The position numbers were made by a program, and so were the translations under genes. A stretch of 64,000 nt of DNA from Candidatus Multivoradales bacterium (lineage in GTDB: Bacteria; Acidobacteriota; Thermoanaerobaculia; Multivoradales; J023), in the NCBI GenBank assembly GCA_965248925.1, contig CBDFLE010000006.1, positions 576,001 through 640,000 on the forward strand. Reading direction: 5' to 3'. The notes under the pieces are model-generated. The model was not told the DNA's origin. It saw only the letters and a program-made list of their open reading frames with translations, and did no database searches. Shown piece after piece: positions 36,096 through 51,849 of the stretch; positions within the stretch are counted from its first letter, which is position 1, and each line of letters opens with the position of its first letter.

Positions 36096-39000
36096 TCAGC
36101 CGGCTAAAGCATCCAGCGCGGAGAGCTCACCTGCTGCTCCCAACTCAGCAAATATTCGCCGCGCCGCGTCGAGATGGTAAGCACGCCGCGAGCCGTCCGC
36201 GCTGAGGCGACGTCCAAGTTCAGCGTGCGCCCGAGCTTGCTCAAAAGGCATCTTCAACTCTTCAGCCTCCACCAAACTACGGCGCAGCAGCCGCAGAGCT
36301 CGCCGCTGGCGACCCCCCAGCCAGGCTACCCTACCGGCGAAAAGACGGGCCGCTGGCCGGCCGATGGGGAAAACCCAGCTGAAGGTGCGCAGCCGGCCGG
36401 CCATCTCCCGCACCCGCTGCCCGAGCTCCGCTCGCTCCGGCGCCGCGTTGGCCACCGCCTCAGCCCACAACTCGAGATAGACTTCGGCGCATCCTTGATA
36501 TCCCCACAAGGTCGAGAACACGGTGGGGGGCGAGGTCCTGGCGATGTGCTCCCGCGCCACCTCGGCCGCGGCGCGGGCCGCGTCCAGCTGCCCCAGCTGC
36601 CAGCGCGCCAGGGCCAACTGACCATGGGCAATCACCTGGGTCCAGCCGTCAGGGCTGTCGGCCGCTAGTGATATCACCTCTTCACAGAACTCGGCGGCGG
36701 CCTGGGCATCGCCGCTACGCAGGGTCGCCACCGCCAAATAATTTCGGCTCCAGGCACGGCGCAAGCGATTGTCCAAACGCTGAAAAGTCTCATAAAGAGA
36801 CTCGCAGAGTTCGACGGCACGCCGTTGGCTGCCCTCCAAGATCAAGGACGCGGCCAGCACCGAAGCGGTATCACCCCACAGGCGGTGGGCACCGAGGCGC
36901 TGAAAGATCCGCTGACCTTTGTCCAGTCGCAGGCGCACCTCCTGCCACTGGCCGACACCAACCTTGTAGAGGCCAATCATCAGCTGCACCTGCGCCTGGG
37001 TCGTCTGATGGTCGACCTTGCTCGCCATGCGATCCGCCAAACGCCGATAGAGTTCCGCCAAACGGTGCAGCGACAGCATCCCGACCAAAGTACAGATAGT
37101 GCTGTAACCCACCGCCAGCCGCTCCGCTGAGTTGGCGGCGCGCTCGGCGGCGTTAAGGCAAGAGAAACCACAGTGGAAAGCCGCCAGCGATTCGGTGTTC
37201 AGGTATGCGACTTCGGCGAGATCGTGATAATGCCCGGCCAATTGCAGGAGATCTTCGCGCCGGGCCTGCGAACGCGGAACGACAGCGCCGCCGGGCCGCA
37301 AGCGATGCACCAGCTGCCTCCCCAGCTGGCCAAACAGAGCCAACACCCGGCTGCCCTTACCCTCGGCCACTCGCTCGCCTAGCAGCTCAATCGCCGCGTG
37401 GTAATGCTCTTTCGCTTTGGCCAGCCGGCCAAGGCCGAAAAACGCCTGCCCGGCACCGCCGTGCCATTCCGACTTCTTACTCGGGCTGGTCGTCGAGGCA
37501 CCCAGCGAGAGCCTCTCTTCGAACTCCAGAATCTGCTCGAAGAAACCCGCCGCTTCGGGGTTGGCAAAGTTTCGTAGCGCTTCGGCCGCGGCTTGCTCGA
37601 GACACGCCACGGCTTTCGCCACGAGTTCTTGAGGCGGCTGGCGCACCTCCTCGAGGGTCTTGGTCCAATGGTGGGCCAGCAAGGGATAGATCCCCGCCGC
37701 CCCAGCCTCGTGGTGGGCCTCATACCATTCCGCCACCCGCTGATGCAGCTCGCGGCGTTGGGCGAAGAGCATCATGTTGTAAGCCACTTCCTGGGTGATG
37801 GCGTGCTTGAAGATGTAACTCAGATCAGGTTCTGGGGTCTCCAAATGGGTCAGGTCGAGGCGCTGCAAACAATCCAGCGAAGCACGCAAAAGATGCCGCG
37901 TTTCGACGCTCGGATAGACCTCGTAAAGGGGTTGGTGAAAGAACACTCGGCCGAGCACGCTGGCCACCTTGACGGTCAACTGCTGCTCGGGACGCAGTCG
38001 GTCGATACGACCGGTGACCACCCCCTCGATAGTGTCTGGAAACTGAGTCTGCGCCAAGTCGGTCACGCCAGGAGCCAGCTTGCAATGCCCGTCGTCGATG
38101 CGGATCAAATCAGCATCGCGCAGAGCATTGGCCAGCTCTTCGCTGAAGAACGGGTTGCCCTCCGCCTTGTCGCTGATCAAGCGTGCCACGGGCTCCGGCA
38201 AACCGCTGACTCCGAGCCGCCGACAGACCAGCAGCAAGGACTCCTGGCGCGACATGCTGCCAAGCAGCAAATGCTCGCCCGACTCGATTTGCTGGCGCAG
38301 CTCAGACGGCGCGGCATCGCCCATCGGCCGGGTCGCCAGCACCAACAGCCAGCGCCCGGGCGAACGCGCCAGCTGAGCGATCAAAGCCCACGACGCCGAG
38401 TCGGCCCAATGCAGGTCATCGAGCACCAGCAGCCGCGGCCGCAGCGCGGCGGCCTGCTCGACAATCGCCCGCAACAGCCGATGGGTGTTATCCGCCCGCA
38501 CCTGGCCGCTGAGCTGCGATGTGAATTCGTTATCGGGCAGATCTAGGGCCAGCAAGGGGCCGAGCAGCGGCCCGAGCTGCGCTTGCCGATCGTCGAGCCG
38601 CGCGCTGAGCCAGCTGTCGATAGCCGCTGGCGAAAGGTCGCCGCTGTGCTCAGCCCCGAGCAAGGTGGTGAAGATAGACCGCCACACGAAGTAAGCCGTG
38701 GCGCTCTCGACCGCATCCGCGATTCCGACATGGACCTCCAGCGGTTCCTCGGCGGTGCGGCAGCCGCGCAGCAGTTCCTGCAACAAACGTGACTTACCGA
38801 TCCCCGCCTCGCCTTCGACAACCACCACCCCGGCTTGCCCCCGGAGCAGCCTGGCAAGTGCTTCACGGAGCACCCCCCGCTCTTTTTGCCGGCCGACGAT
38901 CGCCCCATCGGCCGCGGCTTCAATCGCCCGCGACGCCGACCGACGGTCGGGGCGGAGTTCAAAAATGGGCATCGGCTCGCGCTTGCCCTTGGCCTTGAAG

Positions 39001-40226
39001 TGCCCCAGGTCGAGTAGGTGGAAGCGGTCGGCCAAGGCCTCGGCGATACGGCCACTGATCAAGATCTGCCCCGGCTCGGCCCGGCTCATCAAGCGGGCGG
39101 CCACATTGGTCTCATCACCCAGCACGGAGTAGGTACGGCGGGTGACGCTACCCGTCTCGCCGGCGCGCAAACGGCCGCGACTTATCCCGATCCGCAAGTC
39201 GCGCACGAAGCTCAGATCGGCCGGTGGGCGCATGAGCTGCAACGCCGCCGCCGCCGCCCGCTCGGCGTCGTCCTCATGCGCCACCGGAGCACCGAACACG
39301 GCATAAAAATAACTCCCCTTGTCGCCGCTAGTGAGGTCGATCAGCGAGCCACCGTAGCGCCGCAATAGTTGGTCGACCCAGCGGATCCACCGGTCGAGCT
39401 TGCCCCCGACCTGATCGTCGCGATCATAGTCAAGCCCAGCAAAACTGACGAAGAGAGCGATCGCGAAGCGCAACTCGGCCAGGAAGTGCCCCTGGCCAGA
39501 GAGCAGTCGTTCATAGACTTCCGGCAGCAGAAAGGGACGCACCCTGGCGGCATCTAGCGGCTCAGCCTCAATCTCAGGCCAGGGATCGGCTGCCACCGAG
39601 GCGAAGACAGCGACAACGCCATACGAGCGTCCCTCACCATCGCGACGCAACTCAGCGAGCGACAGATCCCGACCCAGCCGCTCCATCACCGCCGGTCCGG
39701 CAATCACTTCACCCTCGCTGGCCAGTCCCTCTCCAGCCGCCATCCGGTCGAGGGGGGCGCCGGCCAAGACGTCGAGCAAGCGGACCTCCGGGTCGCCGAC
39801 CAGCAGCCGCCGAACCGGCCCCGCCGCCACCGCCGCCTTGACTCCCAGAGCCACGGTATAGCCGCTGGGAGTCTCGATCGCCGCTTGGCGGCCCACCACT
39901 TGCTGCATGGCGATCGCCGCCGACAATGCCCGCCGACCTTGATCGCCCTCGAAAAAGCAGGTGATCGCATCGCCGCTGAAACCGATGACACAGCCCCGTT
40001 GTGCATGCACCTCGTGGATCAGCGCGCCATACACCCGGTTGAGATGCTGAGTGAGTTCCTCGGCACCGCGGCGGCGGCCAAGCTCCCGCACCAGGGTCTC
40101 GGTCAGCGGGGTGAAGCCGGAAACATCGGCGAACAGCACCGCGCCCTCGGCCCTCTCGGGCAGAGCGTGACCCGCGGCCATCGACCGGCGACGGTCGATC
40201 GGCAGATAAGCGTCGAAGCGCTTCAT
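36096..40226 (-). CDS. Class III adenylate/guanylate cyclase with two cyclase domains, a STAND NTPase and TPRs
   Basis: FADVSGFT and GDA; second domain with GDKG, N.AARLM and KGK; GEAGIGKS; LDDLHWAD; GNPFF; helical repeats. Confidence 0.9.
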   Translation of the reverse strand: MKRFDAYLPIDRRRSMAAGHALPERAEGAVLFADVSGFTPLTETLVRELGRRRGAEELTQHLNRVYGALIHEVHAQRGCVIGFSGDAITCFFEGDQGRRALSAAIAMQQVVGRQAAIETPSGYTVALGVKAAVAAGPVRRLLVGDPEVRLLDVLAGAPLDRMAAGEGLASEGEVIAGPAVMERLGRDLSLAELRRDGEGRSYGVVAVFASVAADPWPEIEAEPLDAARVRPFLLPEVYERLLSGQGHFLAELRFAIALFVSFAGLDYDRDDQVGGKLDRWIRWVDQLLRRYGGSLIDLTSGDKGSYFYAVFGAPVAHEDDAERAAAAALQLMRPPADLSFVRDLRIGISRGRLRAGETGSVTRRTYSVLGDETNVAARLMSRAEPGQILISGRIAEALADRFHLLDLGHFKAKGKREPMPIFELRPDRRSASRAIEAAADGAIVGRQKERGVLREALARLLRGQAGVVVVEGEAGIGKSRLLQELLRGCRTAEEPLEVHVGIADAVESATAYFVWRSIFTTLLGAEHSGDLSPAAIDSWLSARLDDRQAQLGPLLGPLLALDLPDNEFTSQLSGQVRADNTHRLLRAIVEQAAALRPRLLVLDDLHWADSASWALIAQLARSPGRWLLVLATRPMGDAAPSELRQQIESGEHLLLGSMSRQESLLLVCRRLGVSGLPEPVARLISDKAEGNPFFSEELANALRDADLIRIDDGHCKLAPGVTDLAQTQFPDTIEGVVTGRIDRLRPEQQLTVKVASVLGRVFFHQPLYEVYPSVETRHLLRASLDCLQRLDLTHLETPEPDLSYIFKHAITQEVAYNMMLFAQRRELHQRVAEWYEAHHEAGAAGIYPLLAHHWTKTLEEVRQPPQELVAKAVACLEQAAAEALRNFANPEAAGFFEQILEFEERLSLGASTTSPSKKSEWHGGAGQAFFGLGRLAKAKEHYHAAIELLGERVAEGKGSRVLALFGQLGRQLVHRLRPGGAVVPRSQARREDLLQLAGHYHDLAEVAYLNTESLAAFHCGFSCLNAAERAANSAERLAVGYSTICTLVGMLSLHRLAELYRRLADRMASKVDHQTTQAQVQLMIGLYKVGVGQWQEVRLRLDKGQRIFQRLGAHRLWGDTASVLAASLILEGSQRRAVELCESLYETFQRLDNRLRRAWSRNYLAVATLRSGDAQAAAEFCEEVISLAADSPDGWTQVIAHGQLALARWQLGQLDAARAAAEVAREHIARTSPPTVFSTLWGYQGCAEVYLELWAEAVANAAPERAELGQRVREMAGRLRTFSWVFPIGRPAARLFAGRVAWLGGRQRRALRLLRRSLVEAEELKMPFEQARAHAELGRRLSADGSRRAYHLDAARRIFAELGAAGELSALDALAG

Positions 40227-40336
40227 AGATTCCTCAACCCACAGTCTATAGAGAAGAAATGCCAGCTTAGACCTCCCTAGACTAGAGTCGACCCGGCCGC
40301 AGCACAAGCAGCCACTTGGGCCGAGAATGGCTCAAT

Positions 40337-40442
40337 CCTCTGCCGACGTCCCGCAACTTTGGCTTAGGAAGGCTTCGGCGCCACCGACTCACCGGCTTGC
40401 AACTCCCGGCCATGGATCCTCCAGAAACTGGCTCGCTCGGCC
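40337..40442. repeat. Left copy of the 106-bp direct repeat (3' end of the GMC oxidase gene)
   Basis: Aligns without gaps to 48214-48319 with 7 mismatches. Confidence 0.92.
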
Positions 40443-40574
40443 GAATCGCCAGGGAGGGCATGTATAGATGCCCGCTTGCAGACCCGAGCGACTTTGTTAG
40501 TCGGGTGGTGCTTGAATGCTCTGCTGCTGTTTTCATGGCTACGATCTACAGCGTTGTTACTACAGTTGCGGCCG

Positions 40575-40814
40575 ATGAGCGACCCACGACCGATTCAGGA
40601 AACCGCCTCGGCCGAGCTGACCGAGAGCTACATGCGGGCGGTGGTGCTAGAAGCGTTTGTCGAGTCCGAGCTGCGGCGCCTGGAGTACCGGCTAGTCCGT
40701 TGGGTGGCAATGCTCCCAGATCAGCTCCCTGAGCCGGCCCATCGCGGCGATCTAGCCAAACGGGAGCTAGCGAGCGTCGAGCTTCGCTCGCCAACCCTTC
40801 CCCTGGGTTCCTAG
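40575..40814 (+). CDS. Small hypothetical protein with an N-terminus paralogous to 46471
   Basis: MSDPRPIQETA versus MNDPQPILEVA; shared upstream DNA. Confidence 0.55.
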   Translation: MSDPRPIQETASAELTESYMRAVVLEAFVESELRRLEYRLVRWVAMLPDQLPEPAHRGDLAKRELASVELRSPTLPLGS

Positions 40815-40837
40815 CTTCCAGTCGCGAGCCTCACCCC

Positions 40838-41260
40838 GTGCGAACGGTGTTCACTCCCAGCCTCGACGATGTGGCGAACCTGTTGCTGCTGGCGGAAGAT
40901 ACGAGCCCTGAGATCGGCAGGATGGCGTGGCATCTTCTCAGAAGAGATGCGCTGACCGGACTGAAACTCAAAGAGCTGCTGGAGCTGGCTCGGGACGCAG
41001 GGATCAGGGTTGGCAGTCAGCATTGGAGCCTCTCAGCGCTGGTGATCAATCAGCAAGTAGACAGGCTGGTCACTTCCGATGGCCGCACTTGGAAGGATGC
41101 ACACGACCTACTCGACCCCGGTCGCGTAGAGGGAGTGGACTACCGAGGGCTGCTTCGCGTGCTTGACGCGCGCCTTGCGCGCTACAGTGCCAACAAGGTG
41201 CGTATGCAGCGACTTCGAGAGCGATTGATTCGGGAGTCAGGGATGACGCGGGCAACCTAG
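40838..41260 (+). CDS. Hypothetical protein
   Basis: 140-aa ORF with helical composition and no recognised motif. Confidence 0.5.
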   Translation: MRTVFTPSLDDVANLLLLAEDTSPEIGRMAWHLLRRDALTGLKLKELLELARDAGIRVGSQHWSLSALVINQQVDRLVTSDGRTWKDAHDLLDPGRVEGVDYRGLLRVLDARLARYSANKVRMQRLRERLIRESGMTRAT

Positions 41261-41440
41261 CGAGCCGTTGCTGGGGGATTGGCCTTCGACAGTCACTGGG
41301 TCGAAAAACTACGCTAAGGGTTATCCTGGCCGCCGGCCGGCCGCGAGCGGAGCTGGTGCTGGCCGAGTCGGTCGAGCGGGCCGCAGCAAACACCCCGCCA
41401 GGCCCGCGCCGGCGAGGTGCTGCGGTCTAAGGCGGTGCGG

Positions 41441-41923
41441 CTAGCCGGTTGATCGAGGCTCGGGCAAGGGCCTTGCCGCTGCTAACCCACACAAGAAACC
41501 GCCGCACGGTTGAACGCAGATTGAGGAAGAGTCGCTGTTGACCTGTGAGAACCCACCATGCGCGAAGATCGTCGAGTTGGTGTGGCCCCGGATCTGAAAT
41601 GGGCAGATGCCCGTCCCCGAGTAATGAGTGGTAGTTCTATTGCCATCCATATAGAGCCCTCCCGTATCTGAGAAAAACCCGACTCTCGGGAACTGGCCGT
41701 TACAACTCATAGATGTGAACATCTCGTAGATGTAGAAGTTACCGACCCGTCCTGGCTCGACTTCGGCATAGCTGAACACATGGAACGTCATGAACTGCGT
41801 CGGAGTTCCGAAGCCGCAGCAGCTGACCGCATCCGTGGTAGCGTTGGTCCTCACGAGAAGGCCGTGGCTGGCAGAGGCAGAAAAAAGCGCAATCGCCGCG
41901 ATCAGAGGGAGGATGGTTCTCAT
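41441..41923 (-). CDS. Secreted Cys-containing hypothetical protein
   Basis: AGGAG RBS, signal peptide, ATGA overlap with the upstream gene. Confidence 0.7.
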   Translation of the reverse strand: MRTILPLIAAIALFSASASHGLLVRTNATTDAVSCCGFGTPTQFMTFHVFSYAEVEPGRVGNFYIYEMFTSMSCNGQFPRVGFFSDTGGLYMDGNRTTTHYSGTGICPFQIRGHTNSTIFAHGGFSQVNSDSSSICVQPCGGFLCGLAAARPLPEPRSTG

Positions 41924-42522
41924 GGTTGCTCTCCTAGAGTTGTACTCGTCTCTTTCGTAGCACGGCGTTCGAACTCGCCGACGATGGCGAAGAAATCGGC
42001 ATCGAGCGGCTTGTCCGATGTCATATTGGTTTGCTGCGCGATCTCTCCTTCGATCATGTTGTCGATCCCGTCTGTCGTGCTGCCGAACTCTGCGAGGTCG
42101 GATTTCAGGCGGTGGTAGATGTCACCGAGGGCACCCGCCTCCCCTTTCCTAAACTGAGTCCGCCGAGCCTTGAGCGCCACCGGGTCTTCCCGGAGCAGCG
42201 TCAGCTCCCGTTCGCGGACTGCTTTCTCGGCCTCGCTGGGGAGCAGGGCTGCAAACGCTTCGATGGAGCGAGCAAAGGCATCTTCTTCCTCGGAGCCGAC
42301 CTTGAGCCCCATGCGTTCGACAAACTGATGGTAGAAGACCCTTTCATCCAGCTGATAGCGCATGAGGGCGTTTTCGTAAAACGTTAGTACCAGGTAGTAG
42401 CGAGGGATCTGCCGCCCGGTGAGTTGGATGAGCTGACCCTCGGTCGCGGGCGAGGCAGCCAGGGGAGCGGTAGTCACCAGACCGAGGGTCAGGATCAAGA
42501 GCAGAGACAAGCCAATTCGCAT
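41920..42522 (-). CDS. Secreted hypothetical helical protein
   Basis: GGAGG RBS; MRIGLSLLLILTLGL...LAA signal peptide. Confidence 0.7.
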   Translation of the reverse strand: MRIGLSLLLILTLGLVTTAPLAASPATEGQLIQLTGRQIPRYYLVLTFYENALMRYQLDERVFYHQFVERMGLKVGSEEEDAFARSIEAFAALLPSEAEKAVRERELTLLREDPVALKARRTQFRKGEAGALGDIYHRLKSDLAEFGSTTDGIDNMIEGEIAQQTNMTSDKPLDADFFAIVGEFERRATKETSTTLGEQP

Positions 42523-44436
42523 TTCGAACCTCCAAGCAGAAAAAATGGATGCGAAGCGGAAGGCTTCGCGCCAAGTACTCTTCTTGCTAACACATAGGAA
42601 GCTAGCACGGAAGTGCAAATAGTACTTGATAAGGGAGATTTCTACAGGACGAGGCTACGCTCTCTCGGTAGTGGAGAAAGTAAAAGTGACCAAAAAGGCG
42701 TACAGAAAATGCGAGAAATTCTATTCTGAAGCTGTTTTGTTGGTACTGCTGTGGGATGCGCAGATCCCAAATCGCTAACTCGGCTCGTCAGCTGAACCGA
42801 CGATCGCCAGCTCGGCCCGTAACGGCCACTGGCTAGACTCCCACCGGACACACTGCCCCGTGCCCGAACAATTCAGCTCGGCCAGGGTGGCGGCGTGTCG
42901 GGGAGTTTTCATGAGCGACCAGAGAAAAAGGCATTGGCGAGTTGACCCATTGATCGAGTCACACCACTTTGCCCCAGTCATCATGCCGGGCGGCATGCAT
43001 ACTGTGATCATTCCGGGCGGCTAGCGCCAGGTGGGCGGGCGGATGCCCTTGCACCGCTCGCCCTCCACAACCTCTCTCAGCACGATGACCGTTGCGGCAG
43101 TCACTTCGCCTCTTCGTGCGACGTAGGTGAAGCGCCTGATCGCTGCAATCGCTGTCTGGTTGTGGCGTAGTGGCTTCAGCAGGGCTGCCATTGTCTTGGC
43201 ACGCTCGGTAGCCTCGCTGGCTTGACCGGTACTGAGGAGTAGTTCGACGAGGTCGAGCGAGGCCAGAGCAAGGCTGAATGGGTCGGTGGCAACGAGCCCC
43301 TCGACTGCCAGCCGTAGGTAGGCTTCGGCGCGGTCGAGCTGGCCACGCCCCTTGGCCACCATGCCCACTGACCACTGAGCCATGGCCCGTGGGTAGAGCG
43401 TAGCCGGTGGAATCAGCGCCAGTGCTACCAGAAGGTGCTCTTCGGCTTCATCGAACTTCTTGTCCAACTCCCGAAGGTGGGCGAGCCCCTGATAAGCGGC
43501 AGCTCGGTGGCTCTTCTCGCTATCCGGTAGCAGAGCTAAAGCAACTTCATAGGAATCTCTTGCCGCTTCCCGATCTAACGCCACCGAAAAGACGCCCTGA
43601 TCTACAAAGACCTTACCCATGCCGGCTCTATCGCGTTGAGCGACGAAGATGGCCATGGCTTCGCCGGAAACTGTCAAGGCATCTTCGAACTCACCGTGAC
43701 CCCCGAGGACAATGCTGGTTCTTCGCAACAGATCAGCTCTTACTCGCGGCGGCGCCCAGTGGCCGATTTCGAGAGCCGTTTCCAGGCAGAAAGCGGCAGC
43801 CTCCATCGAAGCCGCCAGTCTGTGGCTTGAGCCCAGCGCACCGGCAGCGCGGCAGAATGCCTCCACACCCTCCGACCCTTTGATCCTCGGAGCGACCTCG
43901 GCCGCCAGGATCTGGGCCAGCTGCGCGGCTTCCAAGGGTGCGCGCAGTCGAAGCTCATCGAGGACTCTGGCGGCGCGCCTGATGGCGGTCAACGATCGCC
44001 ATTGCGGCATCTCTTGGAGCAGTTGCCGACGAAGGGTGAGCGGCCCGTGAAAGAGGAATGAGCGGGTATCTTGGGTGCTGAGTGCAGCTTGCCGTGGTTT
44101 CTCGGCCTGGTCGAAACGCTGGCCGGCGACCTTCCGCACTGCGGTCTGGAGGGCCAGTATTGGTGTGGGTGGACTCGGCAAAACGATCTTCCGATCTTCG
44201 TCCGCCTCTTCCTTCTTGGCAGCCCCGGTCTTTGCTTCGGGGGTCGCAGGTTGGGCTTCATCCTTCACTTCTGGAGTCTCGGCCTTCAGACGTTTTGCCA
44301 GTGTTTCCCACACTGGCGGTGTTCGTCGGCCATGGACAGCCTCGCGCGCTGTTCTGAGCAGCTCGGCCCCTCTGTGCCAATGTAAGTGAGACACTCAAGT
44401 ACCGAGAAATTAGTGAGGGTGTGGAGAGCAATCACC

Positions 44437-44850
44437 ATGGCGAGTCCAAGCCACGAGCTGCGAGATATGGGTGCTGACCGACCAGATCCCGAGGTAGCTG
44501 AGAAGGCGAAGCGGCGGCGGTACAGCGCGTCGTACAAGCTGCGCATCGTCCAGGCCGCCGACGCCTGTAGCAAGCCCGGCGAGATTGGCGCCCTGCTTCG
44601 CCAGGAGGGTCTGTATTCCTCGCTACTGTCGACGTGGCGCCGTCAGCGCGACACGGGAGCTCTGGCCGGTCTGTCGAAGAAGCGCGGTCGCAAGCGTCGA
44701 CCGGTCTCTGCCGAGGCCCGCCGCGTCGCGGAGCTTGAGCGTGAGAATGCCCGGCTCAAGCATCAGCTGTACAAAGCCGAGACGATCATCGATGTCCAAA
44801 AAAAACTTTCCCGGCTGCTAGGGATCGAGCCGAGCGAGAGCCAGCCATGA
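44437..44850 (+). CDS. IS3 transposase OrfA
   Basis: RRRYSASYKLRIV HTH, coiled coil LERENARLK, A8 run at 44798-44805. Confidence 0.9.
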   Translation: MASPSHELRDMGADRPDPEVAEKAKRRRYSASYKLRIVQAADACSKPGEIGALLRQEGLYSSLLSTWRRQRDTGALAGLSKKRGRKRRPVSAEARRVAELERENARLKHQLYKAETIIDVQKKLSRLLGIEPSESQP

Positions 44851-45968
44851 GCGCTGTGGCGCCGCTGGCCGAGACGGTGGGGGTGCAAGCAGCCTGCGTC
44901 GCCTTGGCGGTCCCCAGAGCCACTTTCTATCGCCGCCGTCGGCAGCAGAGCGCAGGGCCGCAGCTATCAACGCGGCCTCGACCGCCGCTGGCATTGACGC
45001 CCGCTGAACGCCAGGAGGTCCTCGATGTGTTGCACTCGGAGCGCTTCGTCGACCGCTCGCCGCGTCAAGTCTGGGCGGCGCTGCTGGACGAGGATCAGCG
45101 CCATATCTGCTCGGTGCGCACCATGTACCGGGTCCTGGAGTCTGAGGGCGAGCTGCGCGAGCGACGCCGTCAGCGGCGTCATCCCAACTACACCAAGCCC
45201 GAACTGCTGGCCACAGGGCCGAACGAGGTGTGGTCGTGGGACATCACCAAGCTCAAGGGCCCGGTGAAGTGGACCCACTACTACCTTTACGTAATTCTGG
45301 ACGTCTTCAGCCGCTACATCGTCGGCTGGATGCTCGCCTGCCGCGAGTCCGGAGGGCTCGCGAAGCGGTTGATCGCCGACAGTGTTGAGAAGCAAGGTGT
45401 TGAGCGAGATCGACTTACCTTGCACTCGGACCGCGGTTCGAGCATGACATCCAAGCCAGTGGCTCTACTGCTGGCCGATCTCGGGATGACACGGTCGCTG
45501 AACCGGCCCTACACGAGCAACGACAATCCGTTCTCTGAGGCCCAGTTCAAGACGCTCAAGTACCATCCGAGCTTTCCCGACCGCTTCGGATCACTGGAAG
45601 ATGCACGAGCATTCTGCCGCTCGTTCATCGGCTGGTACAACACGCAGCACTACCACACAGGACTCGGCTTGTTGACGCCAGAGACCGTCCACTACGGCCT
45701 CACGGCCTCAGTACTGGAGCAACGTCGAGAAGTCCTCGCCGCCGCCTCAGCCGCTCATCCAAGCCGCTTCAAGCGGCGAGCGCCGGCTTTGCCGGAGCCC
45801 AGTGACAAGGTCTGGATCAACCCGCCGACCACCGCCGCCAGCACTGACCCAGTCGATACCGAGAACGTAGTGACACACCGCGTACACAACGACGCACCAG
45901 GCGAGACCCCTGGCTGCGCGCCCTCGCTGAAAGCGATGGTGCCGGAGCCACTACCGATTCCGTACTAA
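44847..45968 (+). CDS. IS3 transposase OrfB (DDE)
   Basis: WSWDIT, HSDRG and DN..SE..FKTLK motifs; ATGA overlap with orfA. Confidence 0.93.
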   Translation: MSAVAPLAETVGVQAACVALAVPRATFYRRRRQQSAGPQLSTRPRPPLALTPAERQEVLDVLHSERFVDRSPRQVWAALLDEDQRHICSVRTMYRVLESEGELRERRRQRRHPNYTKPELLATGPNEVWSWDITKLKGPVKWTHYYLYVILDVFSRYIVGWMLACRESGGLAKRLIADSVEKQGVERDRLTLHSDRGSSMTSKPVALLLADLGMTRSLNRPYTSNDNPFSEAQFKTLKYHPSFPDRFGSLEDARAFCRSFIGWYNTQHYHTGLGLLTPETVHYGLTASVLEQRREVLAAASAAHPSRFKRRAPALPEPSDKVWINPPTTAASTDPVDTENVVTHRVHNDAPGETPGCAPSLKAMVPEPLPIPY

Positions 45969-46470
45969 TTCCCAGAAGAAAGTGTCTCACTTTCATTGAC
46001 ACATTCCGGGCCGGGCTGGTCGCGGTGAACTCGGCCAGCAGCTCGCCAGGGTCGAGTTCAAGCCCGCCCGCTGCGGTCAAGAACTGAATAAGGGTAAATC
46101 GGTGTGGTGACCGCAGGAACACTCGGCGACTCCATTGGGGGCTATGCCCACTGGCCCGGTCTATCTCGTGCTGGCGCCCACGGTGGAGTTTGAATAGGTG
46201 GCGCAGTCGGTCGCGGCTCTTGGCAGCGTCGAGGCGTGCAATCTCGCTTGGTTTCATCCCTGAACAACCCCCCTGGCGAATACTGGCTAGCGGTAAGAAC
46301 CTGCGAATAGTCGGACCATCGTAACCTATTCTCCTCGGCAAATCTTCTGGGAGGACATGTATAGCGGTCGCTCCTCCCATCTGAGCGACTGCTCTGGCTG
46401 AGCGATCCTTGAATGCGCGCCAGCTATTTCCATGGCCACGATTCGCCGCTCCATAGATACGGTGCGGCCC

Positions 46471-46845
46471 ATGAACGACCCACAACCGATTTTGGAAGTC
46501 GCTCCGCTCGAACAGGTGGAGATGGACACACGAACGAAAATTCTGCTGGTGGCCGCTGAGTTTCGGCGGCTAGAAGACAAGCTGACCGACCTGCTGGCGG
46601 AGCACCCAGGAGGCGAGGTAACGAGCGCCGAACTGCGACCACCCACACTCTTGGGAGTGATGGTCAGCGCGGTGGAGCTGGCAACTGAGCAGGTCGGTAC
46701 CACGATCGGTCTATTGAGAGACGCGGCCGCGATTACGCAGAACGAACTCTTCGAGCGCTGGCTAGAGCGCCGTGGTGCGGAGTATCGCGCCCGATTGACC
46801 GCGCTGGTGAGTTCCAGAGTCCGGCCATTGAGACTGGTGCAGTGA
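46471..46845 (+). CDS. Hypothetical helical protein divergent from the HTH-TPR gene
   Basis: First ORF of the coupled chain; start supported by the paralog at 40575. Confidence 0.65.
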   Translation: MNDPQPILEVAPLEQVEMDTRTKILLVAAEFRRLEDKLTDLLAEHPGGEVTSAELRPPTLLGVMVSAVELATEQVGTTIGLLRDAAAITQNELFERWLERRGAEYRARLTALVSSRVRPLRLVQ

Positions 46846-46919
46846 TCCCGCCCGAGGCTCATGCCGAGGTGGTGTGGTGGGTCGATCGGGTGACCTGTGC
46901 GGCCGTGAAGGCTGAGTGA
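46842..46919 (+). CDS. Putative 25-aa micro-ORF
   Basis: GTGA overlaps at both ends; MIPPEAHAEVVWWVDRVTCAAVKAE. Confidence 0.4.
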   Translation: MIPPEAHAEVVWWVDRVTCAAVKAE

Positions 46920-47434
46920 TGGCGATGTCGCCAGAGAGGCGAGCCGATTTGGTGACGTTGATTGATCTTGGGTCGGTGGTGAGTGTTGGCATCACCGACC
47001 ATTGCTACCGGCTAGCCGTTCATCTGTACGAGCCACCCGATCTCACCGACCTGGCCGAGGTGGCGACCCCCGGACCGAAGACCGAAGCGGCGATCGAGGA
47101 CGTGCGCGAGGCGCAGCGTTCGGCCGCTGCCGGCGTGCAAATCCTGGAGCAATTGCGGACCACGCTACAGCGCCACGCGCTTCGATTTGTAGGCCAACCA
47201 GACGACGACGCGGGCGCCGCACCGCGTGCTGTGCTCTGGAGCCAGCTCCGGCAATCGATCGATCAGCTCGATGGGCTCATAGACCAGCTGACCGCTGTCA
47301 CGTTGACCGCTGCCGGCGCGGGGCCGATCCGTCCAGAGGGGAAGGAAGCGCGCCGCTTGTTTCCCGACCTTGGCGAGCTGGTCGCCCAGCTGCTCGTCGG
47401 TGGTGCGGGCGACGACAGCGAGTCGGACGCATGA
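46916..47434 (+). CDS. Hypothetical helical protein
   Basis: 172-aa ORF with 4-nt overlaps on both sides. Confidence 0.6.
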   Translation: MMAMSPERRADLVTLIDLGSVVSVGITDHCYRLAVHLYEPPDLTDLAEVATPGPKTEAAIEDVREAQRSAAAGVQILEQLRTTLQRHALRFVGQPDDDAGAAPRAVLWSQLRQSIDQLDGLIDQLTAVTLTAAGAGPIRPEGKEARRLFPDLGELVAQLLVGGAGDDSESDA

Positions 47435-47886
47435 GCGTCAAGACACTGGTCTGGGATTGCGGCCGAATGCTGATTCCGGCGCCCCTCCTGCTCGGCGAAA
47501 TGTGGACCGAGGGGCCACTGATATCTGCGGCCGAGGGTGCCTTGCTGGTGAGTCCGCTACGGGGTCCCGCCGGCATTGTATTCCTCGGTTGCGACCGCGT
47601 GCCATTCGCCCATGCTCGCGTGCTGAGCCTGCGGATGTTGGATGGTCCCGCCGTCGTCAATGCCGGTCGCCAGGTCAATGCCGGCGCGCTGCTCTTGTGG
47701 TCGAGCTGCCGGCTGTCGAATGACGACTTGGCCACCGTGCGACCGGTGGCGCTGGCGGCACGGCGAGAATCATTCCCGGTGCTCGATGTTGTGGAAGTAG
47801 TACCCGGCGAGCCGTCTCGCTCACACGCCCCGTGGCGCTTTAACCAGAACCCGGCCTGGCTGGAGGGTTGGAAGTTCCCCCGATGA
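47431..47886 (+). CDS. Hypothetical protein
   Basis: ATGA-coupled start MSVKTLVW. Confidence 0.55.
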   Translation: MSVKTLVWDCGRMLIPAPLLLGEMWTEGPLISAAEGALLVSPLRGPAGIVFLGCDRVPFAHARVLSLRMLDGPAVVNAGRQVNAGALLLWSSCRLSNDDLATVRPVALAARRESFPVLDVVEVVPGEPSRSHAPWRFNQNPAWLEGWKFPR

Positions 47887-48213
47887 AATCTCTCCGCCTG
47901 GCCGAGCTCGCATCTGCCAACTGCTCACGGGGCCATCCGATCTGAGCCTCTAACTTCTAGGCGGCCTGGTCGGTGGTCGAGAGCGCGTCCCCTCGCAACC
48001 CTCTCACGGCCACCGGCCAGACTCTTTTGTGACAGCACTTCGCTAGGACGCGGTGAGGGCTTCCCGCCTCACTTCTTCGTCCGCCGGCCGCGGCCGTCGA
48101 TATGCGGCGCAATTCCCCGCCGTGGTCGCGCGCCGGTTGTTCTTACCCCCCCTCAGTATCGAGATCTCCCGAGCTAGCCACGGGAAACCGCGTCTTCATG
48201 CCCTGTGGATACC

Positions 48214-48319
48214 CCTCTGCCGACGCCCCGCAACTTTGGCTTAGGAAGGCTTCGGCGCCACTGACTCGCCGGCTTGCAGCTCCCGGCCATGGATCATCCA
48301 GAAACTGGCCCTCTCGGCC
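48214..48319. repeat. Right copy of the 106-bp direct repeat
   Basis: Contains the last codons and stop of the GMC oxidase gene. Confidence 0.92.
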
Positions 48320-49866
48320 AACGCGGCGATGGTCATCGACGGGTTGATCGCCAAGGCGGTGGGGATCATGCTGCCGTCGATCACATGGAGACCGGGATAA
48401 TTCCACACCTGTCCGCGGCCGTCGACCACACTATCGGCCGCGCTATCGCCCATGAAGCAGCCCCCCAGGGGATGAGCGGTGATCGTCTTGCGCAACGGCC
48501 AGGGCCAAACCATGCAAGGAACGTAGCGTCCCCCCAACTGCTCCACCATCTTGCGCATGGCCACCTGCATCTGGTCGTACATCGGCTTCGACAGCTTAGG
48601 ATTCCACCGCAAGTCGATCTCACCCCTGGTAAGCCGCAGCTGGCCATCCGCGGCATCCGAACCCATGCCGAGGAATGGCAGGAAGTGGCTGACACTGCCG
48701 CCCGCCAAGATCTGCTTAATCTGACGCTCGAGCATGCTGGTGGCAGGGGCAACGCCAAACATGGCCAGCAAATAGTCCTTGGCCAGGCGCAGCATGTCGG
48801 CGAACTTGGTCGGTGCTTGGATGCCGGCTAACAACCAGGCGAGTGGATTGGGCAGGCCGACGTCCTCGATAAACATCGCGTACTCCGCGGTCGACACATC
48901 GACCCCGGCGCTAATCGCCGGTCCCTGGGTGGGGTCGATCAAACGGTCACTTTCCAGCGAGCCGGCATAGGCAAAGTCGCCGTTGCCGGAGAAGCGCTGG
49001 CCAAGCTGCTCGCCGAGTTCCGGCAAGGTGCCATGCTGATCGCGGCAGCGCAGCAGCAACTCGCTGGAGCCGAGGGTACCGGCGGCCACCACCACCGTCT
49101 TGGCGGCATAGGAGAAGTCCTCGCGCGACACCGTTCCGGGATCGATCAAACGGCCGGAGACCCGATAGCCACCGCCCTTGAGCGGCTCGATCTGCCGCAC
49201 CCGATGGTGCTCGCGAATCACCGCACCGTGGCGCTCGGCGAGGGGCAGATAGTTGGTGTCGAGGGAGTTCTTGGAGCGCACCCGGCAGCCCAGCAGGCAG
49301 TTGGAGTTGTAGTTGCACGTTGCCTGCTCTTCGCCGGTGTAGGGGTTGCTCCGCGGAGCGCCGTTGTCGGCGAAATAGACCGCCAGATCCAGCAACTCGG
49401 GATCGCCGCCAGCGCCCTTGCTGGCGGCGAGAAAAGCCTGGGTGCGGGCTGGCAGCGGGCTACGCTCGGTAGCGGGCACTTTCTGCACCGCCAGCATCTT
49501 CGCCACCACGTCGTAATAAGGATCGAGCACTTGGCGGCGAATCTCCCGCGGCCACACCTGCTGCTCGAAAATCCGTGCCTGGGCTCGCTCGGTAACCGCG
49601 AAATAGTGCAGTGAGCCACCGCCGACGCCGACCCCGTTCATCACGTCCATGCCACGGAAGATCTTGTATTCGATGAATCCGTCGGTCTTATCCTTGATCC
49701 AGAACCCTGCCGCCACTTGGCCGGTTGAACGAGGGAAGTGATCAGCGGGCCAACGCCGCCCCTGCTCGAGAATCAACACCGAACGGCCTGCCTGCGCCAG
49801 CCGGCAAGCGGTCACCGCGCCCCCAAACCCGGAACCGACAACGACGACATCGTATAGCTCTGTCAT
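48241..49866 (-). CDS. GMC oxidoreductase, cholesterol oxidase (ChoD)-like
   Basis: GSGFGG, GVGGGSL, C..GC....KNSLD.NYL, TAHPLGG and NPS.TI.ALAER motifs; no signal peptide. Confidence 0.88.
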   Translation of the reverse strand: MTELYDVVVVGSGFGGAVTACRLAQAGRSVLILEQGRRWPADHFPRSTGQVAAGFWIKDKTDGFIEYKIFRGMDVMNGVGVGGGSLHYFAVTERAQARIFEQQVWPREIRRQVLDPYYDVVAKMLAVQKVPATERSPLPARTQAFLAASKGAGGDPELLDLAVYFADNGAPRSNPYTGEEQATCNYNSNCLLGCRVRSKNSLDTNYLPLAERHGAVIREHHRVRQIEPLKGGGYRVSGRLIDPGTVSREDFSYAAKTVVVAAGTLGSSELLLRCRDQHGTLPELGEQLGQRFSGNGDFAYAGSLESDRLIDPTQGPAISAGVDVSTAEYAMFIEDVGLPNPLAWLLAGIQAPTKFADMLRLAKDYLLAMFGVAPATSMLERQIKQILAGGSVSHFLPFLGMGSDAADGQLRLTRGEIDLRWNPKLSKPMYDQMQVAMRKMVEQLGGRYVPCMVWPWPLRKTITAHPLGGCFMGDSAADSVVDGRGQVWNYPGLHVIDGSMIPTALAINPSMTIAALAERASFWMIHGRELQAGESVAPKPS

Positions 49867-49977
49867 GCGGCAGCCTCCTGAAGAGTGAATAGAAACCTTC
49901 CAGACTGACCGGTGATTCCCGTCCGCGCACCGCCGCACGAACGGCAAGCCCACGCCCCTCACCAATCACTGAATGAA

Positions 49978-49992
49978 TGGCGCCCATTGTGC
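49978..49992 (+). promoter_or_regulatory. Possible sigma54 promoter
   Basis: TGGCGCCCATTGTGC with GG-N10-GC spacing; 13/15 identical to the site at 9872. Confidence 0.4.
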
Positions 49993-50175
49993 GCCTAAAA
50001 CCGGCTGGGAGCAAACGTCCGACCCGCCGGCGAGAAAGTGCGGAACGAATCAGCTCTTTCACCCTCCTCTTGCGCGTCAGTGGTTGGAAGACGGTCCACA
50101 ACTGTCGGCGCCGTTGGGCAGCCGCTGGCCTTCCGAACTTGGGGAAGTGAAGCCAAGCCGTTACGAGGAGAAAAA

Positions 50176-51849
50176 ATGAAGCATTCGAAGCGATCCAGCT
50201 ACAACTTGATCCGCTGCCTGATAACCCTGGCCGTCCTGACTACCCTGGCGAGCCCGCTCGCCGCCCAAGTGGAGCAGGAATTCAGCGACGACTTCCCGCG
50301 TCTCGAAATCCGCGGTCGGTGGCCCCGCGGTATCAGATGTGTGGAGGAAACTCGCAAAGTCTGCCTTCCAGAAGGCTGTACCTTGGATCTCAGCCGGAGC
50401 CACAGCACGAGCCAACACGAAGGAGGCTTCGGCCAAGGCGGACCGGGGTATGGAATCTTCATCTCCTCGCTCAACCGCCCGGGTGGCGGCAACGCCACCT
50501 ACCACCTCGACGCCGCGAGCCGCTGCCTGATCTCCAGAGTCAAGGTCTGCGGCTTCGCGCGACAGCGCGGCTGGTATGAGGGGCGGCACGTCATCTACGG
50601 CCGCTGCCAAGGTGATTGTGCCTGTAGCGAAGACCAGGACTGCGCCCTGGGCCAGGTCTGCGAAACCACGGTGCTGGGCGACTGTGATTCGCCAAGGCGC
50701 CACTGCGTGCCCGGCTGCCGGGCGGGTGCGCGGGGCTGTGCGGGCGGTGACCAATGCTCCCAAGTCGTCTGCAAAACATGCCCCTGTCCCGACCTCTGTG
50801 AATCTCTCGATCCACCCATCTCAACCTGCAAGTGCCCCGAGGGCCATTGGTACGACAACAACCGCCAAAGCTGCGTCACCACCGCCTGCGAAAGCGTCCC
50901 CGGCCTGCCCGATGGCGACAAAGGCGGCGGCTACTTCGCCTGGAGCGGCCACCTCTTCATCGACACTCCGGGAGCCGACTGTGGCGAGGATTTGACGGTC
51001 ACGGCTACACCGACCGTCGAAGTCGGCTGCGATCGATTCGGTGGGACCAAGACCGAAGTAGAGATCCAGATCAATGGCGGCAGCGGCCCCTACACTTGCC
51101 AAGGCCCCGCCTCCAACTTTCCGCTGCAGGTGACCGGTTCCGTCTGCCTTGCAAAAGCGGTTCCTTTTGGTACCCAGACCTTCACCATCGTCGATGCCAA
51201 TGGGCAAGAAGCCAAGGTCGATGTGGTGCTGAAGGACGCGATCACTTTGCAGGCTGGCACCACCAACCCTCCCTCTTGCTGCGATTGCGCCGATGGCTCC
51301 GCATCGGTGATCGCCAGCGGCGACAACGGGCCCTTCAGTTTTCGTTGGAACGATCCGGCAGTTACCCAGACCATCGAGGCCAGCGAGGCCAGCGAGGCCA
51401 GCGGTCTCGCCGCCGGCACCTACTCGATCCTCGTTTCCGATCAGCAGGGCTGCTTCCGAAAGATCGAGGTCACTGTCCCCAAGCTACCCGGCTGCTCAAC
51501 CTCTGAACCACCGGTGGGCCCTCCAGATAACAACATCAGCTACTGGCGCTTGGGCCAGCTGCAAGTCGGCCGGATCTACCCGACAACGGTCACCGCCAAG
51601 AACATCAATTGCAAAGGCAAGCGCGACTTCGAAGTCAGCATCGAAGACACACCCTGGTTCAGGGTGACCGGCCCCACGGTGCTGCGCAAGATTCGACCGG
51701 GGAAGAGCTTGGTCACCGAAGCGGCAGTCGACCTGCGCAATGTCGAGCCCGGCGAGTACCGTGGCCGGATGGTGGTGCGTTGTCTGAACTGCCCACCGCG
51801 CTGTAAACAAAGTCAGTCGATCTTCGAACTACAAGTCACCGCGGAGTGA
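50176..51849 (+). CDS. Secreted Cys-rich mosaic protein with SprB-like repeats
   Basis: GAGGAG RBS and signal peptide; Cys-rich modules; GG.GPY and GL.AGTY...V.D..GC segments. Confidence 0.75.
   Translation: MKHSKRSSYNLIRCLITLAVLTTLASPLAAQVEQEFSDDFPRLEIRGRWPRGIRCVEETRKVCLPEGCTLDLSRSHSTSQHEGGFGQGGPGYGIFISSLNRPGGGNATYHLDAASRCLISRVKVCGFARQRGWYEGRHVIYGRCQGDCACSEDQDCALGQVCETTVLGDCDSPRRHCVPGCRAGARGCAGGDQCSQVVCKTCPCPDLCESLDPPISTCKCPEGHWYDNNRQSCVTTACESVPGLPDGDKGGGYFAWSGHLFIDTPGADCGEDLTVTATPTVEVGCDRFGGTKTEVEIQINGGSGPYTCQGPASNFPLQVTGSVCLAKAVPFGTQTFTIVDANGQEAKVDVVLKDAITLQAGTTNPPSCCDCADGSASVIASGDNGPFSFRWNDPAVTQTIEASEASEASGLAAGTYSILVSDQQGCFRKIEVTVPKLPGCSTSEPPVGPPDNNISYWRLGQLQVGRIYPTTVTAKNINCKGKRDFEVSIEDTPWFRVTGPTVLRKIRPGKSLVTEAAVDLRNVEPGEYRGRMVVRCLNCPPRCKQSQSIFELQVTAE
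51375..51403 (+). repeat. 9-bp tandem repeat CGAGGCCAG x3 (encodes EAS)
   Basis: Directly visible and in frame. Confidence 0.85.

Follow-up and report, generated by a model that had tools for sequence, protein, structure and literature searches.

It is well known that some integrative elements repair the gene into which they insert. In Escherichia coli K-12, the defective prophage e14, integrated in icd as is phage 21, has an integrase of its own beside the attachment site (att). A cis-mobilizable element (CIME) has a known cognate integrative and conjugative element (ICE) or integrative and mobilizable element (IME) of the same att specificity. Integrative mobile elements exploiting Xer (IMEX), among them the CTX phage and its relatives, have no integrase of their own, use the host XerCD, and insert at dif, where they are flanked by 28-bp dif-like sites. 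Campbell-type plasmid integration via a cloned or captured fragment leaves a direct duplication of the shared fragment without any element enzyme and is known mostly from laboratory constructs and from Hfr formation mediated by insertion sequences (ISs). To our knowledge, nearly all described gene-mending elements carry their own integrase and have one target. In the account of e14 in PMC13626634, icd lies on one side of the element and icdC, a C-terminal pseudogene, on the other, and excision is seen as synonymous changes in icd. CIMEs are defined in PMC5704250 as elements that have lost integration and transfer genes and in which attL and attR are kept, and they often stand in tandem with further elements where their target gene ends. 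Here we describe an island at the 3′ end of a GMC-family flavin adenine dinucleotide (FAD) oxidoreductase gene in a 64,000-nt stretch, hereafter the window, of Candidatus Multivoradales bacterium (GCA_965248925.1, contig CBDFLE010000006.1, positions 576,001 to 640,000). The island (40443-48213, 7.77 kb) lies between two imperfect copies of the oxidase gene end and, judged by comparison with its own genome, appears to be a decayed member of a multi-copy, lineage-restricted, plasmid-related element family. Coordinates outside the window are prefixed with the contig (C1, C3, C5, or C6).

A repeat search of 38000-50500 returned a single clear direct-repeat pair, DR-L at the far end of the island and DR-R at the gene (Table 1), 106 nt long and 93% identical (99/106), with exactly two copies in the 7.98-Mb assembly. 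In pairwise alignments extending over 87 nt of distal flank and 118 nt of gene-body flank, similarity ends abruptly at both edges. Each copy, read in gene orientation, takes in the 24 terminal codons of the GMC oxidoreductase gene, its stop codon, and a further 27 nt downstream, and both encode AERASFW(M/R)IHGRELQAGESVAPKPS followed by the stop. Direct repeats of this gene-end type beside an intact target gene are the arrangement seen for e14 and icd. The seven differences fall at repeat positions 8, 10, 24, 41, 52, 58, and 94. Six of them are coding, and five of these six are synonymous, a double AGG/CGA arginine change included; the remaining one exchanges Met and Arg. Given that synonymous changes make up 0.24-0.29 of all single-base changes of these codons, the probability of at least five in six is 0.004-0.009, and Nei-Gojobori counting yields a pS of 0.28 against a pN of 0.018 (Fisher P = 0.0025). 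These P values are somewhat flattering, as the pair was chosen after being seen by an earlier reading of the letters of the window (the sequence-only reading), but the synonymous bias is real.

The position of the one amino-acid replacement distinguishes the two copies. Among the 39 best non-self homologues, all 39 have M, L, or I at this site and never R; the Arg stands in DR-L, and this displaced copy therefore looks unselected today. Had most of the divergence accumulated after the duplication, the unselected copy should carry many amino-acid changes, yet DR-L has one, and so most of the divergence probably predates that event and separates the functional genes of two lineages. The sequence-only reading had taken the repeat for a duplicated gene end with an excess of synonymous differences, which the repeat search, alignment, open reading frames (ORFs), and codon comparison bear out; its further claim that both copies evolved as functional gene ends is upheld for the past and seems not to hold for DR-L as it stands now. 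The differences are unevenly distributed: an unbroken identical run of 35 nt spans repeat positions 59-93 with the stop codon inside, and the 3′ 48 nt of the repeat, 29 of which are stop codon and noncoding sequence, hold one difference against six in the 5′ 58 nt.

Paralogous loci were found by BLAST of the island against its own genome. Shared features include a three-gene operon, B1-B2-B3 (46432..47886), which is transcribed towards the target gene, and a conserved noncoding element (CE), which adjoins the gene-proximal end of each island. The second island (C6:2645370-2651804) lies at a GHMP-kinase gene, which we take from its motifs to be homoserine-kinase-like, between 130-nt direct repeats of 88% identity. 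Both of these repeats comprise the last ~43 codons, and the CE-side copy ends an intact GHMP-kinase gene. The order in this island (distal repeat, B1-like gene, cargo, tetratricopeptide repeat (TPR) remnant, B1, B2, an extra gene termed Bx, B3, CE, proximal repeat, and target) matches that of the oxidase island, as does the orientation. The two islands are 80% identical over 147 nt at their CE-side ends and 72% over 357 nt at their distal ends, with junctions offset by 67 vs 190 nt on the CE side and by 1 vs 68 nt on the distal side (oxidase vs GHMP kinase). The differences between the GHMP-island repeats show no clear synonymous excess (6 of ~15, hand count), and the island holds no intact recombinase.

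The third island (C6:3939992-3965313, 25 kb) lies at an MscS-like gene and contains three copies of the last ~230 nt of that gene, which bound two tandem units (92-98% identical). It shares TPR genes and CE-like sequence with the oxidase island, the latter 19 nt from the proximal repeat, and has no match to B1-B3. The CE copies are permuted here (C6:3949532-3949764 and C6:3964835-3965065), with their two halves in swapped order. Each unit also encodes a ~1580-aa protein, a TPR protein with a helix-turn-helix domain (HTH-TPR), and the last 81-88 residues of a tyrosine integrase, at 84-86% identity to a 395-aa enzyme encoded on contigs C1 and C3. A gene for a 290-aa protein has a fourth CE copy 55 nt from its 3′ end, with no distal repeat within 50 kb. 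Comparison of the repeats themselves gave only chance-level short matches, both among the three islands and to the 3′ region of the integrase gene, and among the 11 repeat pairs compared no 9-mer recurs in as many as three. A 10-mer present at 48213-48222 and C6:2645368-2645377, at the edges of the oxidase and GHMP repeats (E 0.18), was treated as chance, the edges being nonequivalent and the orientations opposite.

The TPR-B-CE module is also present on contigs C1 (29.5 kb) and C3 (48.9 kb), accompanied there by genes for ParA, a NikA-like mobilization protein, DnaB, a resolvase, a Tn3 transposase, and the full 395-aa tyrosine integrase; B1 is absent from C1. From this gene content it follows that plasmid-like or integrative/mobilizable relatives of the island exist. 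Searches with tblastx and blastn found no gene-end cassette after the CE on C1. A simple 18.74-kb circle was considered for C1 and rejected, as only 75% of positions agree at that period. On C3, the 3′ end of the integrase gene is repeated four times within 2.7 kb (C3:36519-39235), with pieces after the full gene that cover residues 282-385, 320-376, and 342-376; this looks like a small array of units bounded by integrase gene ends.

Seventy-six stop-to-stop frames of at least 55 aa, taken from 40300-48350 outside the IS, were searched against Pfam, and none matched a recombinase family at E ≤ 0.05; the only Pfam matches were to TPR families, from the regulator, and two weak, sub-threshold, irrelevant ones. 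Six-frame searches of the genome with PF00589 (37 matches) and PF00239 (4 matches) likewise gave no match within the island, and the closest integrases are ~85 kb away, outside the window. The one candidate trace is at 41381-41449 (+), which resembles the last 23 residues of the C1/C3 integrase and shares its stop codon, a marginal match (E 0.016-0.03). Other fragments of the 395-aa integrase occur at eight places on C3, C5, and C6 and are all C-terminal, never N-terminal. The claim of the sequence-only reading that no recombinase besides the IS transposase is present thus stands for intact genes, and the search for remnants that it proposed turned up no Pfam recombinase and this single marginal candidate. 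It was most likely right that the incoming DNA brought its own copy of the gene end, as att-bearing elements do. Both mechanisms that it named, trans-mobilization and homology-assisted capture, are compatible with the findings here. The island is not an isolated case, given the multi-copy family, and the overall interpretation of the sequence-only reading is partly supported and needs widening accordingly.

The structure of the locus is well supported as the outcome of a single reciprocal crossover between a circle bearing a copy of the gene end and the resident gene end. We favor, with moderate confidence, a decayed, nonautonomous integrative element that entered by one such Campbell-type crossover and whose integrase was lost or supplied in trans. 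A circular form would have carried the 3′ end of an oxidase gene beside the CE, this cassette deriving from a GMC gene of another lineage diverged by ~28% at synonymous sites. Crossover with the resident end would have left one copy finishing the gene (DR-R) and one displaced (DR-L), and was most likely catalyzed by a tyrosine integrase of the C1/C3 kind, since lost from the island or acting in trans. An IS3-family element later entered the HTH-TPR regulator gene. Because the displaced copy bears at most one damaging change, entry was probably recent relative to the divergence; which copy is native we infer, as we do the circle and the enzyme. In its present state, the island resembles a CIME, being att-flanked yet devoid of genes for recombination or transfer. 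A site-specific integrase is further suggested by the position of the cassette, always beside the CE and in the same direction, by the integrase-bearing relatives, by the integrase 3′ fragments in the MscS island and perhaps in the oxidase island, and by the precedents of e14 and the CIMEs.

Several findings weigh against a decayed integrase element. The integrase remnant in the island is only marginal, and the assembly contains no integrase with a matching att sequence, the repeat being present only twice. The distance between CE and repeat varies (67, 190, and 19 nt in the oxidase, GHMP, and MscS islands), and the distal junctions of the two best islands differ by 67 nt. As the repeats have no common core, a single trans-acting site-specific enzyme cannot explain all of the islands. 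The 3′ part of the repeat (40337-40384 and 48214-48261) is more conserved than synonymous divergence predicts, which simple orthologous divergence does not account for; possible reasons are constraint, from a recombination core or from the promoter of the neighboring cyclase gene, or partial gene conversion. Finally, the integrated state cannot be confirmed from short-read contigs. Five sequencing runs from two studies match the locus, four from one sample and one from the other study; three of the former and the latter were compared as Logan contigs, and the latter contains little beyond IS-related sequence. The contigs break within identical stretches of the two repeat copies (40355-40379 and 48232-48256), and the junctions, the empty site, and the circle are therefore unreadable from these runs, as the four arms pair either as integrated or as empty site plus circle. 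No RNA data set is listed among the runs. Relatives that might show an empty site were sought in 41 genomes, none of which is of the same genus (best outside match, 44% identical), and in a metagenome scan, which found none; no close relative of the oxidase turned up in any collection searched.

The alternative that survives best dispenses with the integrase altogether: a GMC gene end that a circular, plasmid-like element had acquired in a related previous host, say through imprecise excision, would have directed RecA-type Campbell integration through the 35-nt identical run. We consider this possible, if rather doubtful. Neither the oxidase island nor the GHMP-kinase island has an intact recombinase, closely related elements stand at unrelated genes with repeats that lack a common core, and junction distances to the CE and to the B1-like gene vary, all of which sit easily with a homology-based route. 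However, random capture does not predict a cassette beside the CE and in the same direction in all three repeat-flanked islands, with the fourth CE placed likewise. The perfect run around the stop codon would serve as a site of exchange, and mostly synonymous differences are expected of a cassette taken from a working orthologue, but 106 nt at 93% identity is a poor substrate for homologous recombination, and integrase fragments occur in the related MscS island and perhaps in the oxidase island itself. The middle repeat of the MscS island is a mosaic, its 5′ part like the distal copy and its 3′ part like the proximal one, with the switch within ~50 identical bases. Serial integration predicts such a mosaic, but unequal crossing-over after one site-specific event predicts it equally, and the two mechanisms are not told apart.

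Duplicated gene ends elsewhere in the genome bear on the same question. Comparison of the genome with itself yielded 71 low-copy direct-repeat pairs spaced 1.5-60 kb apart. On inspection, no fewer than six additional pairs prove to be gene ends duplicated in frame, stop codon included, around 4-25 kb of ordinary cargo (C6:4696599/4709575, C6:4138210/4162839, C5:1343108/1347160, C6:265247/271921, C6:1930870/1934860, and C6:1045996/1060766). The four targets named by Pfam are a ribonucleotide reductase small subunit, a DUF4388 protein, a MacB/FtsX permease, and an LVIVD-repeat protein. Scans of the larger ORFs enclosed by the first five of the six pairs listed turned up no recombinase, which again suits RecA-type integration. 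Against this, the screen is noisy, part of the list being noise, and outward-facing gene ends alone mark only 25 of the 71 pairs, with the opposite arrangement alone in 13. Duplicated gene ends this common would fit either numerous decayed integrase elements or a homology-based route of a more general kind. Three canonical tRNA-targeting islands with integrases are also present in the genome. A gene for a 372-aa tyrosine recombinase occurs in at least 14 near-identical copies at C5:923200-976003 and C6:3501654-3517752, mostly ~7.6-12 kb apart in two arrays, which may be tandem arrays of one element.

A broader proposal, which we hold to be unlikely, extends homology-directed entry to the whole family. 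The family would carry an exchangeable gene-end cassette beside the CE, and swapping it (oxidase, GHMP kinase, MscS-like) would retarget the element to the 3′ ends of unrelated housekeeping genes with no element-encoded recombinase, via host homologous recombination or an unrecognized activity associated with the CE.

Less probable still, and in our view quite improbable, is that B1-B2-B3 and the CE form an undescribed integration module, with an unrecognized recombinase or CE guidance, in the position usually occupied by an integrase. In the two best-preserved islands, B1-B3 and the CE do lie beside the intact target gene, but the MscS island has CE-like sequence without B1-B3, and C1 lacks B1. 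The proteins are orphans: neither B1-B3 nor the products of A1, A2, s160, and s232 (Table 1) match Pfam, PADLOC, or PHROGs. B3 was found in one of 300 genomes of the order, the source genome itself, and 5.8 billion clustered proteins yielded a single homologue from outside it, on a 2.4-kb contig. Among 1.84 billion representatives there is no credible relative of B3 besides a paralogue in its own genome, the sole other hit being borderline (E 5e-4, over a 29-residue stretch of a 2747-aa protein). Two metagenome loci for B3 were discarded, as they showed only a 24-residue match, no other gene of the family, and no CE; a protein-atlas search with B1 gave no usable hit. The proteins are also small (137-172 aa), and structure models offer little: B2 is modeled as a bundle of three long helices (pLDDT 60), the B3 model is unusable (pLDDT 45), and neither is good enough for fold searching.

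The CE itself is conserved and foldable. Its copies in the window (47947-48148) and at C6:2645689-2645886, C6:3815579-3815775, and C1:12373-12573 are each predicted to form three hairpins, with compensatory changes in 4 of 45 predicted pairs, which with four sequences is weak evidence. Guidance by an RNA is unsupported in both islands, where CE region and repeats share only chance 8-10-mers and no complementarity of 10 nt or more. No Rfam family matched the CE in a search of 39500-49000, and the window contains no tRNA. A bridge RNA of the IS110 kind thus finds no counterpart here, with neither a recombinase, nor a CE-repeat match of at least 10 nt, nor an Rfam family. On C1, the CE lies directly upstream of the NikA-like gene, and from this placement it is possible that the CE acts as an origin of transfer (oriT).

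That no mobile event took place, with DR-L all that is left of another oxidase gene, paralogous or xenologous, after deletion of its body, or the locus an assembly join of two strains, deserves hardly any credence: two working paralogues would also diverge synonymously, and short-read contigs unable to bridge the repeat allow both arm pairings, but DR-L lies within 1 nt of the distal end of the element family, an end found 68 nt from the repeat in the GHMP island and at which unrelated deletion scars would not stop, the depths of island and flanks are alike in three runs of one sample, and the 5.2-Mb contig resolves 25 copies of the 1.6-kb IS and was therefore presumably built from reads far longer than 106 nt.

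Table 1. Features of the oxidase island and its surroundings (window coordinates)
Feature	Position	Strand	Basis or remark
Downstream neighbor: large adenylate/guanylate cyclase-AAA-TPR protein	36096..40307	-	ORF and Pfam
DR-L, displaced repeat: same gene end without gene body; R at conserved hydrophobic site	40337..40442	-	Repeat search, alignment, homologue comparison
A1, B1-like small gene at distal end of element	40476..40814	+	Within-genome paralogy
A2, 140 aa	40838..41260	+	Family of ~10 copies in genome
Possible remnant: last ~23 codons and stop of C1/C3-type tyrosine integrase	41381..41452	+	13/23 residues identical, same stop, E 0.016-0.03
s160, cargo ORF, Cys-rich; signal peptide judged by eye	41441..41923	-	Unique in genome, no family match
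s232, cargo ORF	41920..42618	-	Unique in genome, no family match
HTH-TPR regulator, C-terminal TPR part	43021..44367	-	Pfam TPR_MalT and TPR_12
IS3-family insertion sequence	44368..46008	+	orfA 44386-44850, orfB 44847-45968; inverted repeats 44373-44395 / 45981-46003
HTH-TPR regulator, N-terminal ~83 codons (HTH-like)	46009..46257	-	Translation aligns with N-termini of paralogues
B1	46432..46845	+	Conserved three-gene operon of element family
B2	46916..47434	+	Conserved three-gene operon of element family
B3	47431..47886	+	Conserved three-gene operon of element family
CE, conserved noncoding element, ~190-200 nt	47947..48148	+	67 nt from proximal repeat; three predicted hairpins
DR-R, gene-proximal repeat: working 3′ end of GMC oxidoreductase gene	48214..48319	-	Repeat search, alignment, codon comparison
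Target gene, GMC-family FAD oxidoreductase	48241..49965	-	Pfam GMC_oxred_N, GMC_oxred_C, and FAD-binding domains

The G+C content of the island is not distinct from that of its flanks. The two cargo genes s160 and s232 together span 41441..42618, and two copies of the A2 family lie inside integrase-bearing tRNA-targeting islands. The HTH-TPR regulator gene, whose full-length paralogues encode 490-527 aa, is split by the IS. Assignment of the latter to the IS3 family follows from an orfA with HTH_Tnp_1, an overlapping orfB with an rve (DDE) domain, terminal inverted repeats, and many copies: 37 genome matches include 25 near-full-length copies, 24 besides that of the island, at 96-100% identity. 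Because these 24 copies are so alike and the paralogous locus continues uninterrupted across the insertion point, the IS is judged a late, simple insertion unrelated to the repeat. The region upstream of A1 (40444-40545) is paralogous to 46341-46442. A conserved motif of ~24 nt stands 5′ of every B1-like gene, between the divergent HTH-TPR and B1 genes (40444-40467 and 46341-46364), and recurs in the GHMP-kinase island (C6 near 2651607 and 2648324); it may be the operator of the regulator.

The public protein call for the oxidase is 541 aa, from which its start is probably at ~49866. Homologues are named cholesterol oxidase or GMC family oxidoreductase in their sources, and the closest of them other than itself, among 2452 homologues, is 54% identical. 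The downstream cyclase gene probably starts at most ~30 nt beyond DR-L; an empty site would place this gene directly after the oxidase gene.

What sets this genome apart is the occurrence of closely related backbones at three or four unrelated genes, three of them with their own imperfect gene-end duplication and none with a working recombinase. We know of no described natural family that keeps gene-end cassettes in a set position beside a conserved element, in a literature not searched for this specifically. Should the islands be homology-addressed, mobile DNA could change targets by capturing a new gene end, which would explain some of the unusually many duplicated gene ends seen here; if in addition the family does carry exchangeable gene-end cassettes, it would represent naturally reprogrammable, homology-addressed integration that leaves target genes unbroken. 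A decayed integrase element, in turn, would provide a clean, datable replacement gene end outside enterobacterial icd, useful for setting genomic-island boundaries in poorly studied phyla.

With e14 at icd, the island shares its place at the 3′ end of a gene for a metabolic protein, the supply of a working gene end, and a displaced pseudogene left on the far side. It differs from e14 in having, in place of an intact integrase gene, at most a marginal 23-codon 3′ remnant of one, in being plasmid-related, and in having sister elements at other target genes. With CIMEs it shares the retention of attL/attR-like repeats without integration or transfer genes, and the related, putatively autonomous elements on C1 and C3 point to an ICE or IME as its ancestor; the array of three repeat copies at the MscS-like gene resembles the accretion described for such elements. 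Unlike CIMEs, the island has no cognate partner, and no integrase of the same att specificity, in the assembly, and its family's repeats are long (106-230 nt) and imperfect. The duplication of a shared fragment around an inserted circle recalls Campbell-type plasmid integration. In contrast to IMEX, whose members enter at dif, the elements here target the ends of various protein genes that have no core in common. The arrangement at the oxidase gene is thus of a known kind, that of e14/icd and the CIMEs; new are the lack of a recognizable recombinase, the family itself, its CE, and the unrelated targets of near-identical backbones.

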